Part shown: one piece after another, positions 1 through 12,033 of the stretch
Layout of the letters: each line of letters opens with the position of its first letter
Position numbering within the stretch: position 1 is the first letter of the stretch
DNA from: a virus
Taxonomy: Duplodnaviria > Caudoviricetes
Virus record (IMG/VR): IMGVR_UViG_3300011008_000004
Span: 64,001 to 128,000 of that record
Strand: one strand, 5' to 3'
DNA length: 64,000 nt
Notes under the pieces: model-generated
Databases searched by the model: none
Told to the model about the DNA's origin: nothing
Seen by the model: only the letters and a program-made list of their open reading frames with translations
Program-made: the position numbers and the translations under genes

Positions 1-9
1 TCGTATAAA

Positions 10-600
10 TTATACAATTCCTGATGTTACGTCTTTATAACTTTTAAATAGATTATCCATAAAATTAGACCAGTAATTATATTTTTCAATATCTTCACCT
101 GATATAATGTATTTACTATGAACTCTATAATAAAGTCCTTGTTTAGCATCTTTAAAGAATCTTTCTCTAACTGTATTATTAATTATAACACTATCACAAT
201 AAGATACATCTTCTCTTCCAGTTCTTCTAGCAATAGAAATTTGTTTACTATTATTCTTACGAATTAGTTTAGATGTGCCTTCAACATAATAAACTACCTT
301 GCTATTTAAGTCTAAAACATTAGCGCTTGGAAGCGGCTTTTCAATGATTTCTGAGGCCTTAGAATCACCTACACGCTTAGAAACTAATTCACTAAATAAT
401 TTATACAATTGACACATATCGTCCCTACAATTAGCTACTAGCGTATGATCATCTAGCTGTTTCCAATGAGAATTAGCTCTTATAAATCGCATTACTTCAT
501 TAGCATTAAGTTCGAATTGCTTATAAATGTTTAACGTATCTCTCATCTTATTATCAGATAAGAAAAATATACGATTTTCATTATCATATCTAATAAACAT
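10..600 (-). CDS. hypothetical protein
   Basis: 196 aa ORF, TAA stop, overlaps upstream ORF stop; no recognised motif. Confidence 0.6.
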   Translation of the reverse strand: MFIRYDNENRIFFLSDNKMRDTLNIYKQFELNANEVMRFIRANSHWKQLDDHTLVANCRDDMCQLYKLFSELVSKRVGDSKASEIIEKPLPSANVLDLNSKVVYYVEGTSKLIRKNNSKQISIARRTGREDVSYCDSVIINNTVRERFFKDAKQGLYYRVHSKYIISGEDIEKYNYWSNFMDNLFKSYKDVTSGIV

Positions 601-1019
601 TATTCAGCTCCTTTAGGACCTTGTGGACCTGGATCATCTAAATGTGTAGGTTTAATATCTAAAGCTTTTTTAAGCTCCATCATAGAGTAAGCATACTGAA
701 TTTCTTCTTCACTGCTAAATGGACACTTATTATTTAATATCTCAGGACAATCTTCTTGTAATTTACAATAATAAGTTTTTTCTTTAGTTTTAAAATCTAT
801 AATACAACCTAAACCTGGACACTCTTTATCACATTCAATGTCTTTAGTTTCAAATACTTCGGGATGTGAAATATACATTTGAATCATGTTCTTAAATGCA
901 GGAGTTAACATATTTAATTGTTCTTCATTAAACACTAGTTCTCCTGTGGAATCATATGTTAAAGCACTAAAGAATTCTTTTAATGCAGGTAGGTTAATTT
1001 TATCGGGATTATATTCCAT
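600..1019 (-). CDS. hypothetical Cys-rich protein
   Basis: 139 aa ORF coupled to ssb. Confidence 0.6.
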   Translation of the reverse strand: MEYNPDKINLPALKEFFSALTYDSTGELVFNEEQLNMLTPAFKNMIQMYISHPEVFETKDIECDKECPGLGCIIDFKTKEKTYYCKLQEDCPEILNNKCPFSSEEEIQYAYSMMELKKALDIKPTHLDDPGPQGPKGAE

Positions 1020-1021
1020 AA

Positions 1022-1417
1022 TTAAAACGGTAATTGATCGTCATCATCTTCAACAGATGACTCTTCTTTCTTACGATTATTAGGTTTATAGTCTTGACTA
1101 TCATCGTTAGACTTAGACTTCGAATTTAAAAACTCAACTTCAGAAGCAACTATCTGTGTTTTGTATCTCATAACACCTTCTTTATCTTGATAGTTATTGT
1201 TTTGAATACTTCCAACAACACAAACTTTACTACCTTTGCTTAAATATCTTCCACAGTTGTCAGCTAAGCCTCTCCATGCCACAATTTGAAAGAAATCAAC
1301 ATCATCAGAATAATTTCTGCTTACAGCTATTGAAAAAGTGCAAATAGATGTACCATCATTTATACTCGCAACTTCAGGGTCTCTTGTTAAGTTTCCAATT
1401 AATGTAACTTTATTCAT
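1022..1417 (-). CDS. ssb: single-stranded DNA-binding protein (bacterial type)
   Basis: MNKVTLIGNLTRDPE start, acidic DDDQLPF C-terminus. Confidence 0.95.
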   Translation of the reverse strand: MNKVTLIGNLTRDPEVASINDGTSICTFSIAVSRNYSDDVDFFQIVAWRGLADNCGRYLSKGSKVCVVGSIQNNNYQDKEGVMRYKTQIVASEVEFLNSKSKSNDDSQDYKPNNRKKEESSVEDDDDQLPF

Positions 1418-1443
1418 TATATCACCTCAATACTTTTATACAA

Positions 1444-1614
1444 TTAGTCAACTAACTTAATGTCAGATTTTTCAACAATTATCGATCTAAATGTAGTATT
1501 TTCTATAACATATTTATCATCTATAGATCTTTTAACGTCATAGTACTTATCAATCTTATATAAATTGTTGTTTCCTACATATTCTACAGTTTGTCCAGCT
1601 TCAAATTTGCTCAT
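1444..1614 (-). CDS. small hypothetical protein
   Basis: ORF MSKFEAGQ... with GAGGTG SD, downstream of a sigma-A-like promoter. Confidence 0.5.
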   Translation of the reverse strand: MSKFEAGQTVEYVGNNNLYKIDKYYDVKRSIDDKYVIENTTFRSIIVEKSDIKLVD

Positions 1615-1643
1615 AATACACCTCAAATTTAATATTTTTAATT

Positions 1644-1672
1644 ATTGTATCACATAAATAAAAAAGAGTCAA
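1644..1672 (-). promoter_or_regulatory. sigma70/sigmaA-type early promoter
   Basis: TTGACT-N17-TACAAT with TG extension; overlaps terminator. Confidence 0.75.
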
Positions 1673-1690
1673 TCAAATTGACTGACTCTT
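1661..1690 (-). terminator. intrinsic terminator
   Basis: AAGAGTCA...TGACTCTT stem followed by T-run. Confidence 0.7.
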
Positions 1691-2607
1691 ATCTGAATAA
1701 TTTTTATTTAAATAATTATCCACTTGTCTAGAAACTAATGCTCCAGAACTTTCTGCTACTATAACTTGTCGCATTGCTTCTCTCATGCAATCTCCAGCAG
1801 CATATATTCCTGAAAATGTATTTATAGCTCCTATATAACCGTTACTGTCTAAATCTACTACATCTTTAAATGGTTCATTATTAGGAACTAAACCAATTGC
1901 TAAAAATACACCATCTAATTCTAATGTATATGTTACTCCTTCTTTAAAGTAATCTATACCTACTAAATTGTTGTCATCGTCTATGCGATAGCTTTGAACT
2001 TTGGCGCTGGTAATAATCTCTATATTAGCTTTAGCATATATATTTTCTTGTAATTTTTGTTCCCCAGTTAATATCGCTAAATCTTGAACAACATAAACTT
2101 TTTAGCGATATTAGATAGTTCTAACGCTTCTTGTAAAGCAGAATTCCCACCACCAATAACCGCTACAACTTTATCTCTATAAAAAGCTCCATCACACATT
2201 ACGCAGAAAGATATGCCTTTTCCAATTAAGTCTTCTTCATTAGGTAAACCTAATAATCTATGCTTAGTTCCACTAGCAATTATAACTGATTTAGCATAAT
2301 ATTCATCACCAAAAGCAGTTGTTATAATTTTAGTACGACCTTTACGATCTACTTTAACTACTTCATCATATATAACGTTTATATTATTGTATTCTAGTTG
2401 TTCCAATAATTTAAATCCATATTCTTCACCAGATATAGAATTAAAACCAGGAATATTTTCAACTTTAGGTGAATTTAATATTTGCCCACCTACAGCTGTT
2501 TTCTCAAACATTATAACATTTTTATTAGCTCTATTAAGATATATCGCAGCAGAACAGCCGGCTGGTCCTGCGCCTATAATAGCGCAATCAAAAATAATTT
2601 TATCCAT
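1673..2607 (-). pseudogene. trxB: thioredoxin reductase, frameshifted at ~2099-2103
   Basis: GAGPAG, CVMCDG, GGGNSA motifs; C-terminal half (KVYVVQDL...GIYAAGDC...RQVIVA) continues in the -1 frame after GCT AAA AAG; one extra A restores a 311 aa TrxB. Confidence 0.85.
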
Positions 2608-3059
2608 TACTCACCTTTTCTAAATCTATAAGTTATATCTTGTTTATTAGGTTTCATTTTATACATTACTTGATTAGTTGTTATCTTATTTAATGGACCT
2701 TTATCCTCTTGATAACTTCCAACTTTATAATAATCTAAATGTTTAGATAACTCTTCATCGAAAATATCATCGCCACTATACATTGCAACTAATAAATTTT
2801 TAGAATGAATGTAATCTGCTAGTGCAATTATTTCTTGATGTCTATTATCTCCGCCCATAAAACATATACAACTTATATGCTTATTTTTAACTATAAGTTT
2901 ATCTATCTCATTACAAGTTAGTTCAACACCTATATCTTCTCTCAAATGTGGAGAATGACAATTTTTACATAAGTGTGGACATCCTGAGATCTCAAGTGCC
3001 AGACTTATTTCATCTGGCACTTCTTGAAAAACTATAGAATAATCTACGTATTTAATCAT
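2607..3059 (-). CDS. nrdG: anaerobic ribonucleotide reductase activase (radical SAM)
   Basis: FQEVPDEISLA...CPHLCKNCHS CxxxCxxC motif, next to nrdD. Confidence 0.93.
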   Translation of the reverse strand: MIKYVDYSIVFQEVPDEISLALEISGCPHLCKNCHSPHLREDIGVELTCNEIDKLIVKNKHISCICFMGGDNRHQEIIALADYIHSKNLLVAMYSGDDIFDEELSKHLDYYKVGSYQEDKGPLNKITTNQVMYKMKPNKQDITYRFRKGE

Positions 3060-4141
3060 TTTATTGTATCTTCTTTAGCGTAATAACGCTTAATAGCTTC
3101 AGCTTTTCTAACATCACTAAAATTAGATATTCTTTTTAAATAACCAATAATTCTTGTAGCTTTATCAATATTTGTAGATCCACATTTTGGACAATGATCT
3201 AAATTATCTTTGGTTATATGACCACATTCATTACATATTGTATTTGGAATATTAAATGTGCCATAACTACAACCAGCATCAATCCAAATATCCATTAACT
3301 TTCTATATTGTGATTTGCTTAAATGTGAATCTAAGTTACAATGATAGGCACTTCCGCCATCTAAGTTTCCGATAAAATCTTTTCCTTGTAGGTAAGATTT
3401 TTCAATTGGATCATATGTAGGATCTTCAACAGGATAAAAATAAGAATTATATAGATTTCTAGTTTTAGGAACTACATACCCATCACGTTTATCCCAAGCG
3501 TATAGTTTAGCTCCTGCATTCTCTGCAGGCACAAACTCTGTGTTATATTTCAAATGTTCGGAATGATGAATTGTATTCAAGTTCTTAATTGTAGTTAAAA
3601 TATCATAAGCAAATTGCTTATACGCTTTATTATCGGATTTAATCGCAATATCCTTGTATTCATCAGGTACAAATTCATTCATACTTGCTAAAAATTCTGC
3701 GCCCTCAATAAAACCATTTATACCTACTGTTAAAAATTGCTTATCCAAATCGATGAATCCAGCGTTATAAACTGTAAGTAAATTAGCGTTATACATATCC
3801 CATAAGTGATCATTCCAAGCTTCTAAATACTTATGAACTCTATCAACTATATCTGTAATATACTCAGATAAAGTCTTCCTATTTCTTTTGTATTTCTTAT
3901 TTACTTCTTCATTAAACCAATTTTGAACAATTCTATTTATATTCAAAGTAATAACTTTCTTAGATCCAGTTTCTACACCGCCAGCCCCTAATGTATAACT
4001 AAATACATTTTCTTCAATTGCATTTTTCAACCTGCAATTATGAGTTAGTATATCATTAGCATAAAACCAATGATTCTTTTGTAATTCAATATCATATACT
4101 TCTTTAGTTGTAGCTTCTACTGTTACTGATCTTATTTTCAT
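3056..4141 (-). CDS. nrdD: split-intein C fragment (35 aa) fused to NrdD C-terminal half
   Basis: Start MKIRSV after GAGGA SD; VYDIE...FYANDILTHN/C intein blocks F-G; then CRLKN, PAEN, Zn site CNECG..CPKCG, glycyl-radical RIIGYL. Confidence 0.93.
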   Translation of the reverse strand: MKIRSVTVEATTKEVYDIELQKNHWFYANDILTHNCRLKNAIEENVFSYTLGAGGVETGSKKVITLNINRIVQNWFNEEVNKKYKRNRKTLSEYITDIVDRVHKYLEAWNDHLWDMYNANLLTVYNAGFIDLDKQFLTVGINGFIEGAEFLASMNEFVPDEYKDIAIKSDNKAYKQFAYDILTTIKNLNTIHHSEHLKYNTEFVPAENAGAKLYAWDKRDGYVVPKTRNLYNSYFYPVEDPTYDPIEKSYLQGKDFIGNLDGGSAYHCNLDSHLSKSQYRKLMDIWIDAGCSYGTFNIPNTICNECGHITKDNLDHCPKCGSTNIDKATRIIGYLKRISNFSDVRKAEAIKRYYAKEDTIK

Positions 4142-4158
4142 TCTATAACTTCCTCTAT

Positions 4159-5448
4159 TTAACATTCATGTATATGTATTCGCTCATGATGCTCATAATC
4201 AATACAAATTTTTCTTAAAATATTGCTATTATTATAATCTTTCCTTCTACACCAACATATATCTAACTAATCAGTATATAATAGCTAATGCGCAAATTCA
4301 TATAAATCTTTATTGCTAATTTCTTTTATATTTAATATTTTACAAAAAGATTTATAGTCTAATACATGTAAAATTAAACCTAAATTATGCATACTACTAC
4401 ATATTTCTTTGTATTTGTCAGCATCATAGCGCTATAAACTAGACTTTATCTCATAAAACTCATTATTTACTTTAAAATCAGGTAGATAAGAATATTTATT
4501 GCAATTAATTAAATTTATAGTTTCTGCTTCATATAAATAATCAATATTATTTAAATATAATGTGGCAGCTACCTTAAATTCTTCAAAACTTCTACAGTAT
4601 TTATGCAAACCTATATTTGGACATTTAAATTTTATACCATAAGAAGTAAGCTTAAATGTGCCGTCATATGCATATGCAGACTATCTTTCTGCTTGAAATT
4701 TACTTAATCTCTATCGTGCTTCAGGCGTTGAAGCAGGATTATTTTCGTGCCAGATTTGACGCTATAATTCACGAAGTTCTCTGCCTCTATCAGTGTCACT
4801 GTAAAATTTTTTCTTATTTTGTGATAAATTCTATTTATGCTTTTCTGTAAAAATATTCTTAACATTAACATCTAGATTGTAAGTCTTACAGTAATTTTCC
4901 CATGATATATTATGTGATCTTACAACATGATCTTTAATAGCTACACGATATTTACCACATATTTCACATTTAAATGGCTTATCAATATCATTTTCATCTT
5001 TATGTAATATAACATTGTGTTTCTATTTCAAATGTTTACAATATTCATTTTTATACTTAAACTCTTTTCCGCATATCTCACATCTGTAATAACCTATCTT
5101 TTTCTTAAGTTTAACAGATATAGGATATTCAGGATATTCTAATTTGTAATCGTTTATATCAACATAGCCATGTTGTTCACGTAAATGTCTAAGTAAAGAT
5201 ATCGCTTTTTTACCGCATATAGGACATATTACATATTCAGCATTGCGAGCTTGCTCATACTTATCTAATACATCTATGCATTCTTCATAGATATCTAAGT
5301 GATATTTATGAAGATGATGTTTTAAAGATTGCTGTGTAAAACTCTCTTTATAATGTTTACCGCATATAGGACATAGCTAATTGCCTACCTAATTCTTGCC
5401 TTCAAACTTTTTATAAATTAGATTGTATTTCTACTGAGTTGTTAACAT
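4159..5448 (-). CDS. TAG-recoded endonuclease: four C2H2-type zinc fingers plus PD-(D/E)XK domain (putative free-standing homing endonuclease)
   Basis: Manual translation: 429 codons open with 11 in-frame TAG, GAGGT SD, TAA stop; CPICGK..H..H, YRCEICGK, KPFKCEICGK, then RSFEE...YLPDF...YEIK. Confidence 0.85.
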
Positions 5449-5599
5449 TTATACTATCTACCTCATTTAAATATTTGGTGATAATATAACGAATTTCAGC
5501 CGTTTCATTTCTAAAATCTTTTTCAGCTTCTATTTGTAATCTTTTATAAATAGACTCCGGGAGAGCGATTGTTTTTATAATTGTTTTTTCTTTTTCCAT
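5411..5599 (-). CDS. ribbon-helix-helix (Arc/CopG-like) DNA-binding protein
   Basis: KTIALPESIYKRLQIEAEKDFRNETAEIRYII pattern; preceded by GCTAAATTA motif. Confidence 0.7.
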   Translation of the reverse strand: MEKEKTIIKTIALPESIYKRLQIEAEKDFRNETAEIRYIITKYLNEVDSINVNNSVEIQSNL

Positions 5600-5641
5600 A
5601 CTATCACCATTATCTAATTTAGCTAGTAAATTTAATTATTT

Positions 5642-6934
5642 TTAATCTTTTTTAATCAATTCATATCTTTCAAAGTTGTTAACTAAATCTTTTGCTTTAA
5701 TTTCTACTTTGTCACCAGATACATTATCAACTACAAGAAGCACATGTTCAGGAGTAACTTCTAAAACACTACCATCTTCTGATTCTATCTTAATTAAATT
5801 AGGATACTCATTGTCTTTTATAAGTACACCAGTGATATCAGAATATTCTATCATATCTTTTTCAATATTATATGACATTGTTTCATAATCACTATAATCT
5901 TTACTGTGATTTATACAGAAAGTGCTAATTGGCATAGTAATAATTTTTAAAGATGTCTTATGTCTGATCGTTATCAACTCATTTCCCTTAAAACAACAGC
6001 TAGCTAATGCATCAGCTGAATCTGAATTATATAAAAAGAATGAATGACCTTTGGACCACATTTCAGCAGTGAAATCAGCCATTTCTTCATCTACATATTT
6101 ATGTGTATCTTTGTCCCATAGCAAATTCATTGTCTCAACAGGAAATGTGATAACATCATGGGTTCTTTCATTATTAAACCAATTCATAAACATTTTCTGT
6201 AATTCTTTTGTAGATTCCCAATTAGGTTCATCACCATCTGGGAATATAAAATCTTTAAATATTGAATTAAAATATCCCTTATCAAAATAAGCAATATTAG
6301 TAAATGGTGATTGATAACCTCTAGCGCCTGCAGGTTGATTTATACAGTAAACAAATTGTTGAAATAAATCTTCAATTTTATTTCTTAAAGTAGCTCTTCT
6401 ATTGCCAAAAGCTTCTACAGTTTCATCTAAATTTGTTATATAATCTTCACCGTAATCTACTCTTAAAAAGTGATCTAAATAAGGTAAAAATTCTGGAACA
6501 GCGACAGCCCCTGCAAATTGACCTGCTATTAAAAATACTAAATTTGTTAAACCACCTATAAATGAATCTGAATGTTTAGGCGGGCCACTTGTTCCGCCTA
6601 ACTTCTTTAAGCCATCTAATAAAAATGGATATAATGAAATAGCTACACAATATGGCATAATTGAACTCTCATCATGTGAATATATGATGTGATTTTTTAA
6701 ATCTAAATCAAACTGATCACACAACTCTTGGCCATATTTAATCAATAAATATTTCTTTGTTATAGCACGATTTACGTCTATAAAATCAGGCTTAGATAAT
6801 TCTGAAGACATTGTTGCTACATTCTTAGTAGTTACATTAGCATTAGCATCTACTTCAGAACCGGATGCAGCGTTACACGCTTGTTTATAATTCTCAATAA
6901 ATTTAAGTTTCTTATTTAAAGTCCTTTCATCCAT
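5642..6934 (-). CDS. nrdD: NrdD N-terminal half fused to split-intein N fragment (117 aa, from 5995)
   Basis: NAASGSEVDANANV, YSHDE, PYCVAIS, GARGYQSPFTN; ends ALASC/CFKGNE (block A) ...VTPEH (block B), then TAA. Confidence 0.93.
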   Translation of the reverse strand: MDERTLNKKLKFIENYKQACNAASGSEVDANANVTTKNVATMSSELSKPDFIDVNRAITKKYLLIKYGQELCDQFDLDLKNHIIYSHDESSIMPYCVAISLYPFLLDGLKKLGGTSGPPKHSDSFIGGLTNLVFLIAGQFAGAVAVPEFLPYLDHFLRVDYGEDYITNLDETVEAFGNRRATLRNKIEDLFQQFVYCINQPAGARGYQSPFTNIAYFDKGYFNSIFKDFIFPDGDEPNWESTKELQKMFMNWFNNERTHDVITFPVETMNLLWDKDTHKYVDEEMADFTAEMWSKGHSFFLYNSDSADALASCCFKGNELITIRHKTSLKIITMPISTFCINHSKDYSDYETMSYNIEKDMIEYSDITGVLIKDNEYPNLIKIESEDGSVLEVTPEHVLLVVDNVSGDKVEIKAKDLVNNFERYELIKKD

Positions 6935-6936
6935 AA

Positions 6937-7179
6937 TTATTTCGCCTCGTGTATATAATTCATTATCGCTTTGCCATATATAATTTCTTGTCTAGTTACA
7001 AGTTCACCATTTTCATCTGTTTCTGTAATTTCGACTCGTAAAGCTGGCGTCTGCCTTACACCTTCAGCTTTCATAATATTAATATCTTGACAATCTTCAT
7101 AAGATATATTATTTTTATCCAACAACATATGAATTACACGACATTGTGGACAACCTGGTTGACTATATAATTTAATCAT
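6937..7179 (-). CDS. glutaredoxin/NrdH-like redoxin
   Basis: LYSQPGCPQC, TPAL motifs; upstream of nrdD. Confidence 0.85.
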   Translation of the reverse strand: MIKLYSQPGCPQCRVIHMLLDKNNISYEDCQDINIMKAEGVRQTPALRVEITETDENGELVTRQEIIYGKAIMNYIHEAK

Positions 7180-7279
7180 AAAACCTCTCTTTTATAGATA
7201 AAACCGTCTATTGTTATAGATGGTTGTTACTATACAACTTCTAGCAATCTTAAATTTCTTGTGTTTAATTTAGCTCGTT

Positions 7280-7400
7280 TAAGACGATATAGACTATCCG
7301 TGAACTACCGATAGCTGAAGCAATCGGCTTCCTGCTCAATGCAACCACTGTTGCAAGTATCAACAGGCTAACCCCGTAGTCCCTACGGTTTTTATAATTT
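7280..7400 (-). ncRNA. TnpB omegaRNA (right-end scaffold) with guide GGATAGTCTATATCGTCTTA
   Basis: Stacked hairpins downstream of tnpB stop ending in TTCAC; flanking 20 nt is the predicted guide. Confidence 0.7.
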
Positions 7401-8783
7401 TTATACTTTATTGATTATACAGAAGTCTAAGTCCTTCATTCAGAATATTTATTGCCGCATTCTGATCTCTATTATGATGTGTTCCGCAATCTGGACAAGT
7501 CCATTCTCTTATAGAAAGAGAATTTACAATATCTTTGTGATAACAACCACATTCAGAACAAACAATGGTTGTAGGAGTAAATCTTCCTATTTTAACTAAT
7601 TGTTTTCCTTGAGATTCTAATTTCTGTTGAAGTCTTGTTCTAAAATAACCAAAAGCATTATCCATAGTTGATTTTCCTAGTCTTAGTGCTTGAGATTGAG
7701 CTTTCATATCAATATCTTCAATACAAATTATATCATATTTCTCTGCAAGTTTCTTAGATTCTTTTTCAATGAAATCTTTTCTTTGATTAGTTATTTGTTC
7801 ATGAATTTTTGCAACTTTAATCTTTTGTTTTTCATAGTTATTTGAGTACAATTTCATATGAGATAACTTACGTTGTTCTTTAGCTAATTTTGGTTGAGAT
7901 TTCTTGAATAATTTTACAAACCCCTCAGGTTTATTGTTTTGGCTATCAACATAAAACTCTGGAGCGCTGTAATCTAATCCAACTGCTTTATTTTTGTCTA
8001 ATTTTATTTCAGGTATTTCATACTCATATTCAGCAAGAATACTTATGAAATATTTACCTGAGTTTGTTTGAGAAATGGTTGCTGATTTTATAATGTAATC
8101 TTGCGGAATGAATCTATGTTCAACAAATTTAATAGGTCCAAGTTTGGGAAGCTGGATTCTATTATTAGAGATAATTCTTATTGAATTGTTTACACAATTA
8201 GTAGTATAAGATTTTTTATCAAATTTTTTCGATTTGAATTTAGGAAATCCATTTTTAATATTTCTAAAGAAATTATTATAAGCTGTTTGTAAATGCATTT
8301 GCTCATTAGCTAAAGCTAAAGAATCAACTTCTTTTAACCAATCGAATTCTTCTTTGTATTGAGCAGGTGTGTTTTTGAGATTAACCTTATCTTTCTTATA
8401 AGCCTCAATTTTATCAGCTAACATCTTATTGTAGATAAATCTACAGCAGCCAAATGTTTTTTGTAGTAATATTTCTTGCTCTTTATTTGGATACAGGCGA
8501 TATTTGAAACATTTATTCATGAACAACTTCCTTACTAAAATAAAAATAGCTTATTTGATTGGCGGATCAAATAAGCTATAATTACTCTATATCAAACTAT
8601 TGCTAGTTTAATAACATTATAATATACAATATTGATTCCGCCAAATCAACAATAATCATTTCTGATTACAGATAATTTAGCTAATAAAATACATAGAAAA
8701 ATACCGAAATTCAAAGAATATTTCAAATCATCTAAAGCAATTCATCCGATGACTGAAGTCAAAGGATTTCCTGCTGAGTTAGG
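7300..8783 (-). mobile_element. IS200/IS605-family (IS1341-like, tnpB-only) element
   Basis: tnpB; subterminal hairpins at both ends; right end ...GTAGTTCAC; left flank TTTAA (candidate TAM); boundaries inferred. Confidence 0.8.
7408..8526 (-). CDS. tnpB: RNA-guided endonuclease TnpB
   Basis: FKYRLYPNKEQ HTH_OrfB start; RuvC D (GLDY), E (IEDI), D (RDQNAA) intact; CSECG/CPDCG zinc ribbon. Confidence 0.95.
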   Translation of the reverse strand: MFMNKCFKYRLYPNKEQEILLQKTFGCCRFIYNKMLADKIEAYKKDKVNLKNTPAQYKEEFDWLKEVDSLALANEQMHLQTAYNNFFRNIKNGFPKFKSKKFDKKSYTTNCVNNSIRIISNNRIQLPKLGPIKFVEHRFIPQDYIIKSATISQTNSGKYFISILAEYEYEIPEIKLDKNKAVGLDYSAPEFYVDSQNNKPEGFVKLFKKSQPKLAKEQRKLSHMKLYSNNYEKQKIKVAKIHEQITNQRKDFIEKESKKLAEKYDIICIEDIDMKAQSQALRLGKSTMDNAFGYFRTRLQQKLESQGKQLVKIGRFTPTTIVCSECGCYHKDIVNSLSIREWTCPDCGTHHNRDQNAAINILNEGLRLLYNQ

Positions 8784-10073
8784 TTAAATTTCATACATTT
8801 TTACTGGACAATCTTTTAAAATATCTACAATATCGTCATACAATAAAATTGGTTGTTCTATCAATTTATCTTTAATAATTTCTAACAACTTTCTATTATT
8901 TTTTAATATTTTAGTAGCTTTATTGTAGAATCTATGAATCTGTCTAACAACTTCATCATCTATTCGTTTGCCACGACCAAAATCATTTCTTCCAGTAGCT
9001 CTCATATATTTAAAGCCATTAACACCTAAAGCACCAATAGCTAAATCCATATTATTTTTTAAATCTTTCAGATCTGAGAATGTACCTAAATCTATATCTT
9101 TAAATATAAGTTCAGTAGCAGCTTTACCACCTAAATCTATAATACAATTAGTAGCATAATCTTTATAGCTATAATTACATATTAAATTTTCTTCTCTCCA
9201 GCCATCACCTTTTAATGTAAAACCTCCAATATTACCACTAACTACATTAGATATCATATCTACTTCGCCACCTAAAGCTAATGCAACTATTGCATGACCA
9301 GCTTCATGATAGGCTGTTCTAAGCTTAGATTCTGAAGTAGCTTCACCATATGTCTCTCTAGTTCCTAAGACACCATGTAATAAAGCCTCTTTAATATCTT
9401 CTTTAGTAATGTATTGTCTTTTAGCGAAGCCTGCACTTAAACTTGCTTCAGATATAACATTCTTTAATTCAGCGCAACTTCTATTGCGCATAATTCTAGC
9501 AATTAAATCTGCTGGAACATCTAACTTATATGATGTGTTACTTAAATAATAATTTATAATAGCTAAAGCATCTGCATTATTAGGCATATCGAAATGCATA
9601 TGTCTACCTAATCTACCTGCTCTTTTTAAACTATAAGGTAATACGTCTATGTCATTAGCTGTAGCAACTACAAACACATCTTGATCCTGTAAATTATCCA
9701 AAATACTCTGAATAACGATAAATTCTTCATCATTATAGCGATCTTCATCACTTTCAGCGAATTTATCTAAATCATCTAATAATACAATTGAGGGCTGATT
9801 CTTTATAGCTTCTTCAAATGTAGCAGTTATATACTCTATAAACTTCTCATCTGGTTTATCTTTTCTAATAATATAACTATTACGTTTAGATTCATATAAA
9901 AGTGATTCAGCGGCTAGTGTTTTGCCCAAACCAGGTTTGCCATAGATTAAAATAGCTTTTGGTAAATCTACACAGTATTTCTTATATTTTGAAGTATGTT
10001 TCAACATATCAGCTATGCACCTTAAGTCTTTCTTAAAACTTTCATAGCCAATAATTCTATCAAATTTATCCAT
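8784..10073 (-). CDS. FtsH-like AAA+ ATPase with M41 peptidase domain, no transmembrane segment
   Basis: GKPGLGKT Walker A, LLDDLD Walker B, RAGRL SRH, TAYHEAGH zinc motif. Confidence 0.88.
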   Translation of the reverse strand: MDKFDRIIGYESFKKDLRCIADMLKHTSKYKKYCVDLPKAILIYGKPGLGKTLAAESLLYESKRNSYIIRKDKPDEKFIEYITATFEEAIKNQPSIVLLDDLDKFAESDEDRYNDEEFIVIQSILDNLQDQDVFVVATANDIDVLPYSLKRAGRLGRHMHFDMPNNADALAIINYYLSNTSYKLDVPADLIARIMRNRSCAELKNVISEASLSAGFAKRQYITKEDIKEALLHGVLGTRETYGEATSESKLRTAYHEAGHAIVALALGGEVDMISNVVSGNIGGFTLKGDGWREENLICNYSYKDYATNCIIDLGGKAATELIFKDIDLGTFSDLKDLKNNMDLAIGALGVNGFKYMRATGRNDFGRGKRIDDEVVRQIHRFYNKATKILKNNRKLLEIIKDKLIEQPILLYDDIVDILKDCPVKMYEI

Positions 10074-10336
10074 TACTCACCTTTAATTTCTTCATTTTCA
10101 TACTTGCTAATAAGTCTTTCTAAATACCACTTAGCTTTCTTTAAATCTTGTAATGGTTTACCTTTAAATGGATGTCTCCACATATATTTAACTACTTGCC
10201 AACTTAAACTAGCATCTATAGCATCTTTATATCCTGATATCATAGAATCCAAAGCATCTATGCATTCTATTTTACCTGAAGTATAGTGGCTTGGACTATT
10301 TACCATTTTTTCATCACAATTTTCTAAATTACTCAT
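10073..10336 (-). CDS. DUF3310-like phage protein
   Basis: VNSPSHY...IECID...KYMWR...DLKKAKWYL. Confidence 0.85.
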   Translation of the reverse strand: MSNLENCDEKMVNSPSHYTSGKIECIDALDSMISGYKDAIDASLSWQVVKYMWRHPFKGKPLQDLKKAKWYLERLISKYENEEIKGE

Positions 10337-10881
10337 TGCACTACCCCTAATTGTTTCTCTATTTCCATCACTTTTTCATAAATATAATCATAACCATCTA
10401 TAAAGCCATTTATTGTTTCATAATCTATTTTATAGTTATTTAACATCGCTTCTGTAGATGCTTCAATAATATTTGCTTCAAATTCTGTTTGATTACGACC
10501 ATTTGGGTTATATTCTTTAACTCTTTTTAAGAAAAAGTTTAAATTATTATAAGTATTAAATAAATCTACAGTTGCTTTCCTAAAATTTTCAGTATAATCA
10601 GCTGTAGGAACGTATAAAGTACTTAGCGGTAATGGACTATCAGTTATAATTACATCAACTTTACCATAACATCTGCTCAATCTAAAACTTTGCTTGCCTA
10701 AAATATAAAATTGATTCTTAAAAACTTCTTTATTCTCTTCCCAAACTTTGTCTTTAGCAAACTCAGTAACTAGTTCAGCATCTACTCCGGCCATCTTTAA
10801 TTTTGAAAATATATAAGCAGCTCCAGTACTTTTACCAGTACCTGGTCCACCAAACAAATTAACTACTAATGTGTTTTTCAA
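10333..10881 (-). CDS. P-loop nucleotide kinase (NadR/AAA_28-like)
   Basis: NLFGGPGTGKST, ITDSPL, GRNQTE. Confidence 0.8.
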   Translation of the reverse strand: MKNTLVVNLFGGPGTGKSTGAAYIFSKLKMAGVDAELVTEFAKDKVWEENKEVFKNQFYILGKQSFRLSRCYGKVDVIITDSPLPLSTLYVPTADYTENFRKATVDLFNTYNNLNFFLKRVKEYNPNGRNQTEFEANIIEASTEAMLNNYKIDYETINGFIDGYDYIYEKVMEIEKQLGVVQ

Positions 10882-10892
10882 ATGTAATCTCC

Positions 10893-11993
10893 TTAGAATG
10901 GATCATCCTTTATGTTATTAGCTTCTTCAGCTTCTACTAATTTCTTTCTTAATGTATCTTCATATAATTTCAATAATCTATCATCATAAGTATATTTAGA
11001 TTTTATATTTTCTAAATAATTGACATTATCTAAATTATACTCTTCTTCATATTTATAAAAGTGATTCATTATATTATCTACAAATAGAACTTTCATATCA
11101 AGTTCACAACAGCCTCTTTCATCAAACCATTGATCTTTCATAAAAACTCTATCTCTAATCTTATACAGCTTATAAGCATCTACTTCTCTATAGAATATAG
11201 GATAATACTCTGATTTGCCATATTTTCCTTCTACATTATTGAAGTTTATAAACCAACTTTTATTTTTAACAATTGCAGCAGCAATATCTGACATAAATCT
11301 TAAATTTCTAATATACTTATCGTAGTCGTTTAAGTCTATTTCACAATCTCTAAATTCATGATAATCAAATAATGTATCAAAACCTTCTTTATACATTTTC
11401 TTATATCTTTCTAAGAAAGTTGCATTTGTATCATCTTTCTTCTTATACAAAGAAGCTTTTTTAATATTTATAATTCCTAATCTATAAATTGGAATGTCCG
11501 GATAGTTTGTTTTTAATTGAAAAATATATCTATAAATTTGATCTATATAACCCTTCCAATCAGGTGTTTGAGAAGATGTTTTATAATCCATCAATACCCA
11601 ACCTTTATCAGTTTTGCATAATAAGTCTAATATGCCTACAAAATCGTGTTTCTCATAAGGATCAGAAGGTAATTCACTTTCTAAAAATAATTCATGATTT
11701 TCTTCTAAAACAGTACAGCCTTCTAAAACCTTAGCCATTATTTTATCTTTATGTAATTGATAGCCATAAGCCATAGCCGTAGCCATTATTTCCTGTTGTG
11801 TAAGCTCTTCTATAGACTTTTTATTAAAATATTCTAATAAGTCATCGGTACTATGTTCTATACTATAATGAACAGCTGAACCTACTGCGAATGCTGCTTT
11901 TTCTTCTTTAGGTTGAATTCCTTCTATCGCTGATAAGTAATATTCAGCTGGATTATTTATAATGTTTTGTAACTTAGAATGACTTAATTTCAT
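10893..11993 (-). CDS. PD-(D/E)XK exonuclease (AddB/Cas4-like)
   Basis: LSHSKL start, GSAVH, GILDLL...DYKT. Confidence 0.8.
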   Translation of the reverse strand: MKLSHSKLQNIINNPAEYYLSAIEGIQPKEEKAAFAVGSAVHYSIEHSTDDLLEYFNKKSIEELTQQEIMATAMAYGYQLHKDKIMAKVLEGCTVLEENHELFLESELPSDPYEKHDFVGILDLLCKTDKGWVLMDYKTSSQTPDWKGYIDQIYRYIFQLKTNYPDIPIYRLGIINIKKASLYKKKDDTNATFLERYKKMYKEGFDTLFDYHEFRDCEIDLNDYDKYIRNLRFMSDIAAAIVKNKSWFINFNNVEGKYGKSEYYPIFYREVDAYKLYKIRDRVFMKDQWFDERGCCELDMKVLFVDNIMNHFYKYEEEYNLDNVNYLENIKSKYTYDDRLLKLYEDTLRKKLVEAEEANNIKDDPF

Positions 11994-12033
11994 TTAATAT
12001 TTCCTCAATATAATTATACACAATTAGCCTAAT

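Follow-up and report, generated by a model that had tools for sequence, protein, structure and literature searches.

A fractured nrdD gene with a predicted split intein and an amber-interrupted zinc-finger nuclease gene in a phage that reads TAG as glutamine

How might a phage obtain a working anaerobic ribonucleotide reductase (RNR) from a gene that is broken between two cysteines of its active-site loop? The question is raised by a locus of the IMG/VR virus record IMGVR_UViG_3300011008_000004, a 214,257-bp Caudoviricetes genome that carries terminal repeats and is rated 100% complete. We analysed a window of 64,000 nt, bases 64001-128000 of that record, and coordinates refer to the window unless marked as genome positions. 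Here the class III RNR gene nrdD is present as two genes on the minus strand, and NrdD is the sole RNR of the phage: no class I/II RNR, second nrdD, nuclease paralogue or other intein was found in the complete genome. With a probability of about 0.82, we consider the locus to be a fractured nrdD, in which a split intein rejoins the two halves by trans-splicing and the gap holds a mobile, amber-gated nuclease module.

The upstream gene is an open reading frame (ORF) of 430 amino acids (aa; 5642-6934, minus strand). It joins NrdD residues 1-313, ending in ...ALASC (5996-6934), to a 117-aa N-terminal intein fragment (IntN, CFKGNE...ELIKKD; 5645-5995), and closes with a TAA stop at 5642-5644. A stretch of 1,500 nt separates this stop from the start of the second gene, which lies within the ORF 3056-4165(-) and begins at an ATG at 4141 with AGAGGAAG 7 nt upstream. 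This gene encodes a 35-aa C-terminal intein fragment (IntC, MKIRSV...THN; 4037-4141), followed directly by the 326-aa NrdD C-extein, which starts at Cys+1 (CRLKN; 3056-4036). The halves are, thus, two separate translation units, with a stop after IntN and a dedicated start codon and ribosome-binding site before IntC. The initial annotation had described NrdD-N, IntN and the TAA, and had placed a separate IntC gene 1.5 kb downstream; its coordinates hold and the second gene was borne out. Its wording also suggested that IntN ends at TPEH, which is incorrect, as these residues form block B at intein positions 81-84.

The two exteins together account for an almost complete NrdD. The N-extein matches the Pfam family NRDD over positions 37-296 of 562 (E 2e-36) and TIGR02827 over positions 3-316 of 596, and the C-extein matches NRDD over positions 252-560 (E 8e-47). 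Jointly, the halves cover NRDD from 37 to 560 and score 393 and 343 bits against TIGR02827. The N-extein is 83% identical to an intein-free NrdD (P0071), and the C-extein is 79-80% identical to two others (P0021 and P0024). A Zn ribbon (CNECGH...CPKCGS) and the glycyl-radical motif TRIIGYL are found in the C-extein. With the barrel, the SCCR motif, the C-terminal Zn ribbon, the glycyl-radical RxxGY motif and an adjacent NrdG all present, the rejoined protein is predicted to be a class III NrdD.

At the junction, intein-free relatives read ...SSCCRLRN (L002) or ...ASCCRL (Thermotoga maritima, 4COI), so the intein interrupts the cysteine pair precisely, and the second Cys of SCCR provides its +1 nucleophile. 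Joining the NrdD halves in silico restores the SC/CR motif. The SCCR of T. maritima NrdD aligns with the MGCR of T4 NrdD, which contains the radical cysteine Cys290, and the substitutions C329A and C330A each inactivate the T. maritima enzyme (PMC4493059). The finger-loop cysteine pair named in the initial annotation is, therefore, confirmed as a sequence motif.

The intein halves carry the expected splicing blocks. In block A, Cys1 directly follows the N-extein (ALASC/CFKGNE), and block B is T81-P-E-H84, with TP(E/D)H kept in the IntN of three related loci (L007-L009) and of two metagenomic proteins (P0123 and P0124). Block F of IntC is VYDIEL, containing D17, and block G is T-H34-N35 followed by Cys+1; the terminal Asn and C+1 are invariant across nine stand-alone C-halves. 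The Pfam profile Intein_splicing matches IntN over positions 19-87 and IntC over 121-155 of 155, which are complementary stretches. The NCBIfam profile intein_Cterm (TIGR01443) scores 29.0 bits, above its cut-off of 15.6, and intein_Nterm is matched over its full length (1-83 of 83) at 24.0 bits, against a cut-off of 24.5. A search with intein profiles had been suggested as a check on the split intein; it matched both halves, IntC above its NCBIfam cut-off and IntN 0.5 bit below. These observations support the prediction of a class-1 (Cys1/Cys+1), naturally split intein at the SCC/CR site, in which every residue required at the sequence level is in place.

A structural view was obtained from the contiguous mini-intein of a relative (L006), modelled with the window halves in the alignment. 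The model is a HINT domain with a predicted local distance difference test (pLDDT) score of 82.7. Its best PDB matches in Foldseek are all inteins, including the Aes123 PolB1 split intein (E 1e-8) and NrdJ-1 (E 6e-7), and its 51 matches at E<=1e-3 are inteins, bacterial intein-like (BIL) domains or hedgehog Hint domains. At the sequence level, the window IntN has marginal matches in the PDB, to PolII inteins (E about 0.02), and none of the gp41-1, gp41-8, NrdJ-1, NrdA-2 and IMPDH-1 inteins was matched by the window intein at E<=10.

The same arrangement recurs in other phages. Locus searches for the nuclease, which gave nothing with the window protein alone but succeeded with an alignment of seven sequences, yielded five loci with flanking sequence (L007-L011). 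In all five, the nuclease relative is flanked by NrdD-N/IntN on one side and IntC/NrdD-C on the other. L007, L008 and L009 are IMG/VR contigs of 197-218 kb, with a locus GC content of 22-38% and N-exteins 37-72% identical to that of the window; in each, the stop after IntN is conserved and IntC has its own Met and Shine-Dalgarno sequence. None of the six loci has lost Cys1, TxxH, block F, the terminal Asn or C+1, and the IntN of these natural pairs are 33-55% identical to each other. Metagenomes contain eight further stand-alone IntC-NrdD-C proteins (P0003, P0005, P0008, P0009, P0010, P0012, P0015 and P0017) and two further NrdD-N-IntN proteins (P0123 and P0124). The prediction of a natural split intein at this site is supported: the canonical class-1 residues are found in the window and again in five further loci and in several stand-alone halves.

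Comparison with L007 gave a lower proportion of nonsynonymous (pN) than synonymous (pS) differences for every part of the element (pN/pS 0.31/0.78 for IntN, 0.27/0.76 for IntC, 0.40/0.80 for the nuclease and 0.26/0.61 for a small gene that precedes the nuclease gene). Synonymous divergence (dS) is saturated at this distance, so that solely the inequality pN<pS is usable, and it indicates purifying selection on all four. Two features of L008 were also observed: its NrdD N-extein is itself divided between two ORFs (2530-2931 and 2940-3911), and its IntC (5128-5244) ends in VNN, with loss of the penultimate His.

Further phage NrdDs show other states of the same site. The identical point is occupied in MT835492, Nitratidesulfovibrio phage SRB7757 and Clostridium phage c-st by contiguous inteins that contain a LAGLIDADG domain; L006 carries a mini-intein of 164 aa at the SCC/CR site, and close relatives have no intein there. 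The split point of the window intein corresponds to the place where LAGLIDADG is inserted in the contiguous alleles (L003, L004 and L013) and to the linker of the L006 mini-intein. One site in phage NrdDs is, therefore, found empty, with a full LAGLIDADG intein, with a mini-intein, and with a split intein plus a free-standing nuclease. This allelic series makes a proposed origin of split inteins, in which a nuclease invades a mini-intein, directly comparable and testable. The tblastn matches extending past NrdD residue 313 in Cronobacter phage S13 and similar phages resembled inteins at first and were rejected as alignment run-on into intein-free NrdDs of 610 aa.

Two of these phages show additional insertions. 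In SRB7757 (L004, 3765-4418), the NrdD frame terminates once the intein is complete, and a distinct ORF of 217 aa precedes the remaining C-extein, which suggests that this nrdD was invaded a second time. The nrdD of Prevotella phage Lak-A1 (L005, 456500-462000) has about 260 nt inserted inside its N-part and about 1.2 kb inside its C-part, as well as an intein-like stretch at the SCC/CRL site.

What occupies the gap in the window depends on the genetic code that is applied. Translated with table 11, the spacer yields short ORFs and many stops, and all of the in-frame stops are TAG. The phage genome (GC 29.7%, almost all genes on the minus strand) has in-frame TAGs in dozens of long genes, and coverage by ORFs of at least 100 aa rises from 71% under table 11 to 92% once TAG counts as a sense codon. 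The genome encodes two tRNAs with the anticodon CUA, at genome positions 2606-2680 and 163136-163233; the second gene measures 98 nt and has, at the variable-loop position, an additional arm of about 23 nt. The acceptor and D arms of both look Gln-like by comparison with Escherichia coli tRNA-Gln. The phage recodes TAG to Gln (a code 15-like usage), as seen from the tRNA(CUA) genes, the gain in coding density and the Gln found at TAG columns in homologues.

Under this code, the gap holds an intact gene of 429 codons (4159-5448, minus strand) with 11 in-frame TAGs and a TAA stop, and it is intact solely with TAG as sense. It encodes a predicted zinc-finger PD-(D/E)xK nuclease, a putative homing endonuclease. 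The TAGs lie at codons 6, 20, 24, 142, 206, 229, 246, 256, 339, 388 and 394; they make up 11 of its 19 Gln codons, and three fall within the first 24 codons. At E<=1e-3 the protein has 181 homologues, many aligning end to end; one of these, P0125, is 41% identical without interruption (1-424 against 1-420). Gln is 5.7-fold enriched in the homologue columns opposite TAG, and at codon 229 it is present in 28 of 39 sequences. A reading of the spacer as degraded endonuclease debris was rejected, because every stop is TAG and the genome is recoded. The redoxin gene upstream, both nrdD halves, the small gene preceding the nuclease, nrdG and a nearby tnpB contain no in-frame TAG, and the closest other genuine TAG-bearing ORFs (>=150 aa) are about 11 kb and 11-12 kb from the nuclease gene. 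The nucleases of L007-L009 have no TAG in any of them.

The small gene encodes a probable ribbon-helix-helix (RHH) protein of 62 aa (5411-5599, minus strand), with weak matches to RHH_5 and TraY (E 0.035-0.045), and its 3' end overlaps the nuclease start by 38 nt. An orthologue in L007, 56% identical, has the same position and likewise overlaps the start of the nuclease gene.

The nuclease itself has four fingers of C2H2/Ros-MucR type, and its AlphaFold2 model has a pLDDT of 89.6. Residues E307, D324, E333 and K335 are invariant across 40 homologues. In VIA-align, the predicted nuclease domain (residues about 270-375) matched VRR-NUC (Z 8.3), the catalytic domain of I-Bth0305I (Z 7.9; root-mean-square deviation 3.5 over 81 residues) and Vsr (Z 6.1); other top matches were Bax1, TnsA and Hjc. 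All six are PD-(D/E)xK folds, span Z 8.3 to 5.0 and rank among the best matches alongside some unassigned chains. The catalytic E/D/ExK residues on a restriction-endonuclease-like fold place the modelled domain in the PD-(D/E)xK class. The EDxHD motif of Vsr-like homing endonucleases was looked for, and the domain has no conserved His, its invariant columns being E, D, E and K. Foldseek with the whole 429-aa model gave no match at E<=0.001, so that the nuclease domain was resolved by VIA-align alone, and zinc fingers were the sole named match of the nuclease in the Pfam, PHROGs and NCBIfam searches. Among members of the family, seven match Phage_endo_I and three match TnsA-like_N. The gene was previously undescribed, and its family is unreported in fractured genes. 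The nuclease of the initial annotation, therefore, does exist in the gap, with the amendments that it is readable solely under TAG=Gln and belongs to a family new to such genes. Judged by its placement, it is most likely a homing endonuclease, the one that gave rise to the split allele and still propagates it.

These findings are consistent with the following mechanism. NrdD would be made as two polypeptides, NrdD(1-313)-IntN and IntC-NrdD(314-639), and IntN and IntC would associate into a HINT domain competent for class-1 protein trans-splicing. An N-S acyl shift at Cys1, transfer to Cys+1, cyclization of Asn35 and an S-N shift would then yield a 639-aa NrdD with SCCR restored, in which Cys+1 would serve as the thiyl-radical cysteine equivalent to Cys290 of T4. 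NrdG would activate the spliced enzyme, with electrons probably supplied by the redoxin and a thioredoxin reductase. The two genes in the gap, for the probable RHH protein and the four-finger C2H2/PD-(D/E)xK nuclease, would form a mobile module. Translation of the nuclease mRNA, with its 11 UAGs, would abort early under the host code and be completed solely when the phage tRNA-Gln(CUA) suppressors act, which would defer the nuclease to a later stage; the nrdD halves, having no TAG, would be readable under the host code. The presence of 11 amber codons in an otherwise TAG-free, early-type operon suggests a selfish gene that is controllable by the genetic-code switch of the phage. Recoding has been put forward as a timer of late phage genes (10.1101/2021.08.26.457843), and amber gating of the nuclease would parallel the expression of mobE in Aeromonas phage Aeh1, which is restricted to late infection (PMC2677866).

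Several observations weigh against this interpretation. The two intein halves score 26.4 and 20.9 bits against Intein_splicing, for which the whole-domain cut-off is 35.8, and their net charges (IntN -8, IntC -1) give weak complementarity, unlike typical fast split inteins. The fold model is that of the contiguous relative L006 rather than of the window IntN/IntC pair, and the structural matches of the nuclease domain are middling, at Z about 8. The late timing of suppressor activity is assumed by analogy with published ideas on recoded phages.

The weak charge complementarity, together with the IntC of L008 that has lost its penultimate His, would also suit a scheme of non-covalent assembly, with the intein pieces serving as docking domains and no splicing taking place, as in the mobE-split NrdA of Aeh1; RNRs encoded in pieces that work without splicing are documented (PMC2677866). 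We consider this improbable. C1, T81, H84, D17, H34, N35 and C+1 are all present in the window pair, and six of six loci retain C1, TxxH, the terminal Asn and C+1. The break also falls inside SCCR, where both cysteines are essential, and the active-site loop would have to tolerate a HINT domain of 152 residues. Trans-splicing is the economical explanation, because a broken finger-loop region with 152 extra residues is unlikely to be active. It is less probable still that nrdD is a decaying gene, in which a former intein and endonuclease have been wrecked by stops. The table-11 appearance of the spacer and a frame change in the neighbouring trxB are in keeping with decay, but TAG, a sense codon in this genome, accounts for 11 of 11 internal stops, and the read-through protein matches its homologues end to end. 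In addition, the exteins retain every motif and about 80% identity to intact relatives, pN is far below pS, the architecture recurs on five other contigs, and no other RNR is available to the phage. Least probable, in our view, is an RNA-level event, either group I/II intron splicing or ribosomal bypass, that rejoins a contiguous intein-nrdD frame. Group I introns do occur in nrdD of T4 and many gut phages, and the nrdD of Lak phage has several insertions. However, an Rfam scan of window positions 1-12000 at E<=1 returned no intron or ribozyme family, and two conserved protein genes fill the 1.5-kb gap. RNA-level rejoining is unlikely because no intron family was matched and because just 42 nt of the gap are non-coding; the stop after IntN and the Met and Shine-Dalgarno sequence before IntC are, moreover, conserved in all loci. 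An RNA splice had been named at the outset as a result that would overturn the split intein, and the Rfam scan was empty.

A separate doubt concerns the nuclease, which could be another phage nuclease or a regulator, with an anti-host, recombination or defence-related role for example, and lie in the gap incidentally. Homing-type cleavage is predicted from genomic context, the weak matches of family members are to T7 endonuclease I and the TnsA N-terminal domain, and Ros/MucR-type fingers occur in regulators. We regard this possibility as unlikely, while giving it appreciable weight. The five flanked members (L007-L011) all lie exactly between the nrdD split-intein halves, in phages whose N-exteins (L007-L009) are just 37-72% identical to that of the window, a placement typical of a site-specific selfish element, and the PD-(D/E)xK catalytic tetrad is invariant.

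Returning to the fractured-gene interpretation, the fractured genes reported by Dassa in 2009 are hosted by gp41, IMPDH, DnaE, NrdA, NrdJ, ligase and terminase, with NrdD absent, and their nucleases are GIY-YIG or Vsr-like (PMC2677866). As in gp41-1, gp41-8, NrdJ-1, NrdA-2 and IMPDH-1 (PMC2677866), the locus has two ORFs on the same strand, a split between blocks B and F, an endonuclease gene in the gap, a phage enzyme of nucleotide metabolism as host and, as in NrdA, a site before the thiyl-radical Cys. The commonest intein site in class I/II RNRs is directly before that Cys (PMC2677866), and by alignment the SCC/CR site of nrdD is its class III counterpart. The locus differs from those genes in its class III NrdD host, its C2H2 plus PD-(D/E)xK nuclease, the preceding probable RHH gene and a nuclease whose translation needs amber suppression. 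On sequence evidence, it shows every feature of a Dassa fractured gene, and both its host protein and its nuclease are new to that class.

Other known systems share part of this design. The contiguous NrdD intein of c-st, like those of MT835492 and SRB7757, has the same insertion (...ASC/CF...THN/CRL) and homologous splicing blocks, but each of those inteins is one continuous chain (about 330-350 aa) that contains a LAGLIDADG domain, whereas the window intein is split and accompanied by a separate nuclease gene of another fold. The nrdA-a/mobE/nrdA-b locus of Aeh1 is likewise a phage RNR gene halved by a selfish endonuclease gene; it has no intein, its halves associate non-covalently, and mobE encodes an HNH enzyme controlled by a promoter and RNA hairpin rather than by recoding. 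The predicted catalytic-domain fold is shared with I-Bth0305I (Vsr-like/EDxHD) and with PD-(D/E)xK homing endonucleases. Unlike I-Bth0305I, the window nuclease has an E...D...ExK motif and four C2H2/Ros-MucR-like fingers that are predicted to bind DNA, and no sequence similarity is detectable between the two. In engineered zinc-finger nucleases, a C2H2 array is similarly joined to a restriction-type nuclease domain, that of FokI, whose cleavage domain has the PD-(D/E)xK fold; the window protein differs in being natural and phage-borne, with widely spaced, prokaryote-like fingers.

The novelty suggested by the initial annotation stands in part. NrdD is outside the 2009 list, and a full-text search, beyond the reach of which most subscription journals lie, turned up no description of either an NrdD split intein or a C2H2 plus PD-(D/E)xK homing endonuclease. 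Contiguous inteins at the same site have long been known, from c-st, and a 2026 paper describes gut jumbo phages in which nrdD is fragmented and carries endonuclease or Intein_splicing inserts. The locus offers several natural Cys1/Cys+1 split-intein pairs without detectable sequence similarity to standard intein tools, which are, therefore, candidates for orthogonal protein ligation. The nuclease adds a natural architecture of finger array plus PD-(D/E)xK domain with a long predicted target. We tentatively raise a bolder combination of ideas, which is possible but doubtful as a whole: that the C2H2 PD-(D/E)xK protein is the first of a new homing endonuclease family, whose members act as natural 'zinc-finger nucleases' dedicated to the nrdD intein site; that codon reassignment acts as a temporal switch silencing the nuclease until amber suppressors are made; and that the three adjacent cysteines (Cys-1, Cys1 and Cys+1) could redox-gate trans-splicing, so that the oxygen-sensitive reductase would assemble solely under reducing conditions.

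The split gene is embedded in a module of related functions on the minus strand. Its first gene encodes a glutaredoxin/NrdH-like redoxin (6937-7179; Pfam Glutaredoxin, E 1.2e-5). Downstream of nrdD-C, and overlapping its stop by 4 nt, is the gene for the radical SAM activase NrdG (2607-3059; matches to Fer4_12 and Radical_SAM), followed by the thioredoxin reductase gene trxB (1673-2607; Pyr_redox_2, E 3.5e-26). The latter occupies two frames, 2077-2607 and then 1673-2101. A 1-nt frame change falls at a run of five A (GCTAAAAAGTTT, about 2099-2104). Nine codons beyond it the N-half terminates, and the C-half of 142 aa, in the -1 frame, extends as far as a stop at 1673. Programmed slippage could explain this, as could an indel introduced in assembly or decay into a pseudogene. 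The nrd module is immediately preceded by a gene for a TnpB of IS200/IS605 type (OrfB_IS605, with a Cas12f1-like TNB domain; 7408-8526, minus strand), with no TnpA seen near it. Finally, the PHROGs profile phrog_25611, a 978-position profile named 'anaerobic RNR large subunit', is matched by the window NrdD halves at positions 37-363 and 648-841 and includes an intein-sized insert; annotation pipelines, therefore, absorb NrdD inteins silently.

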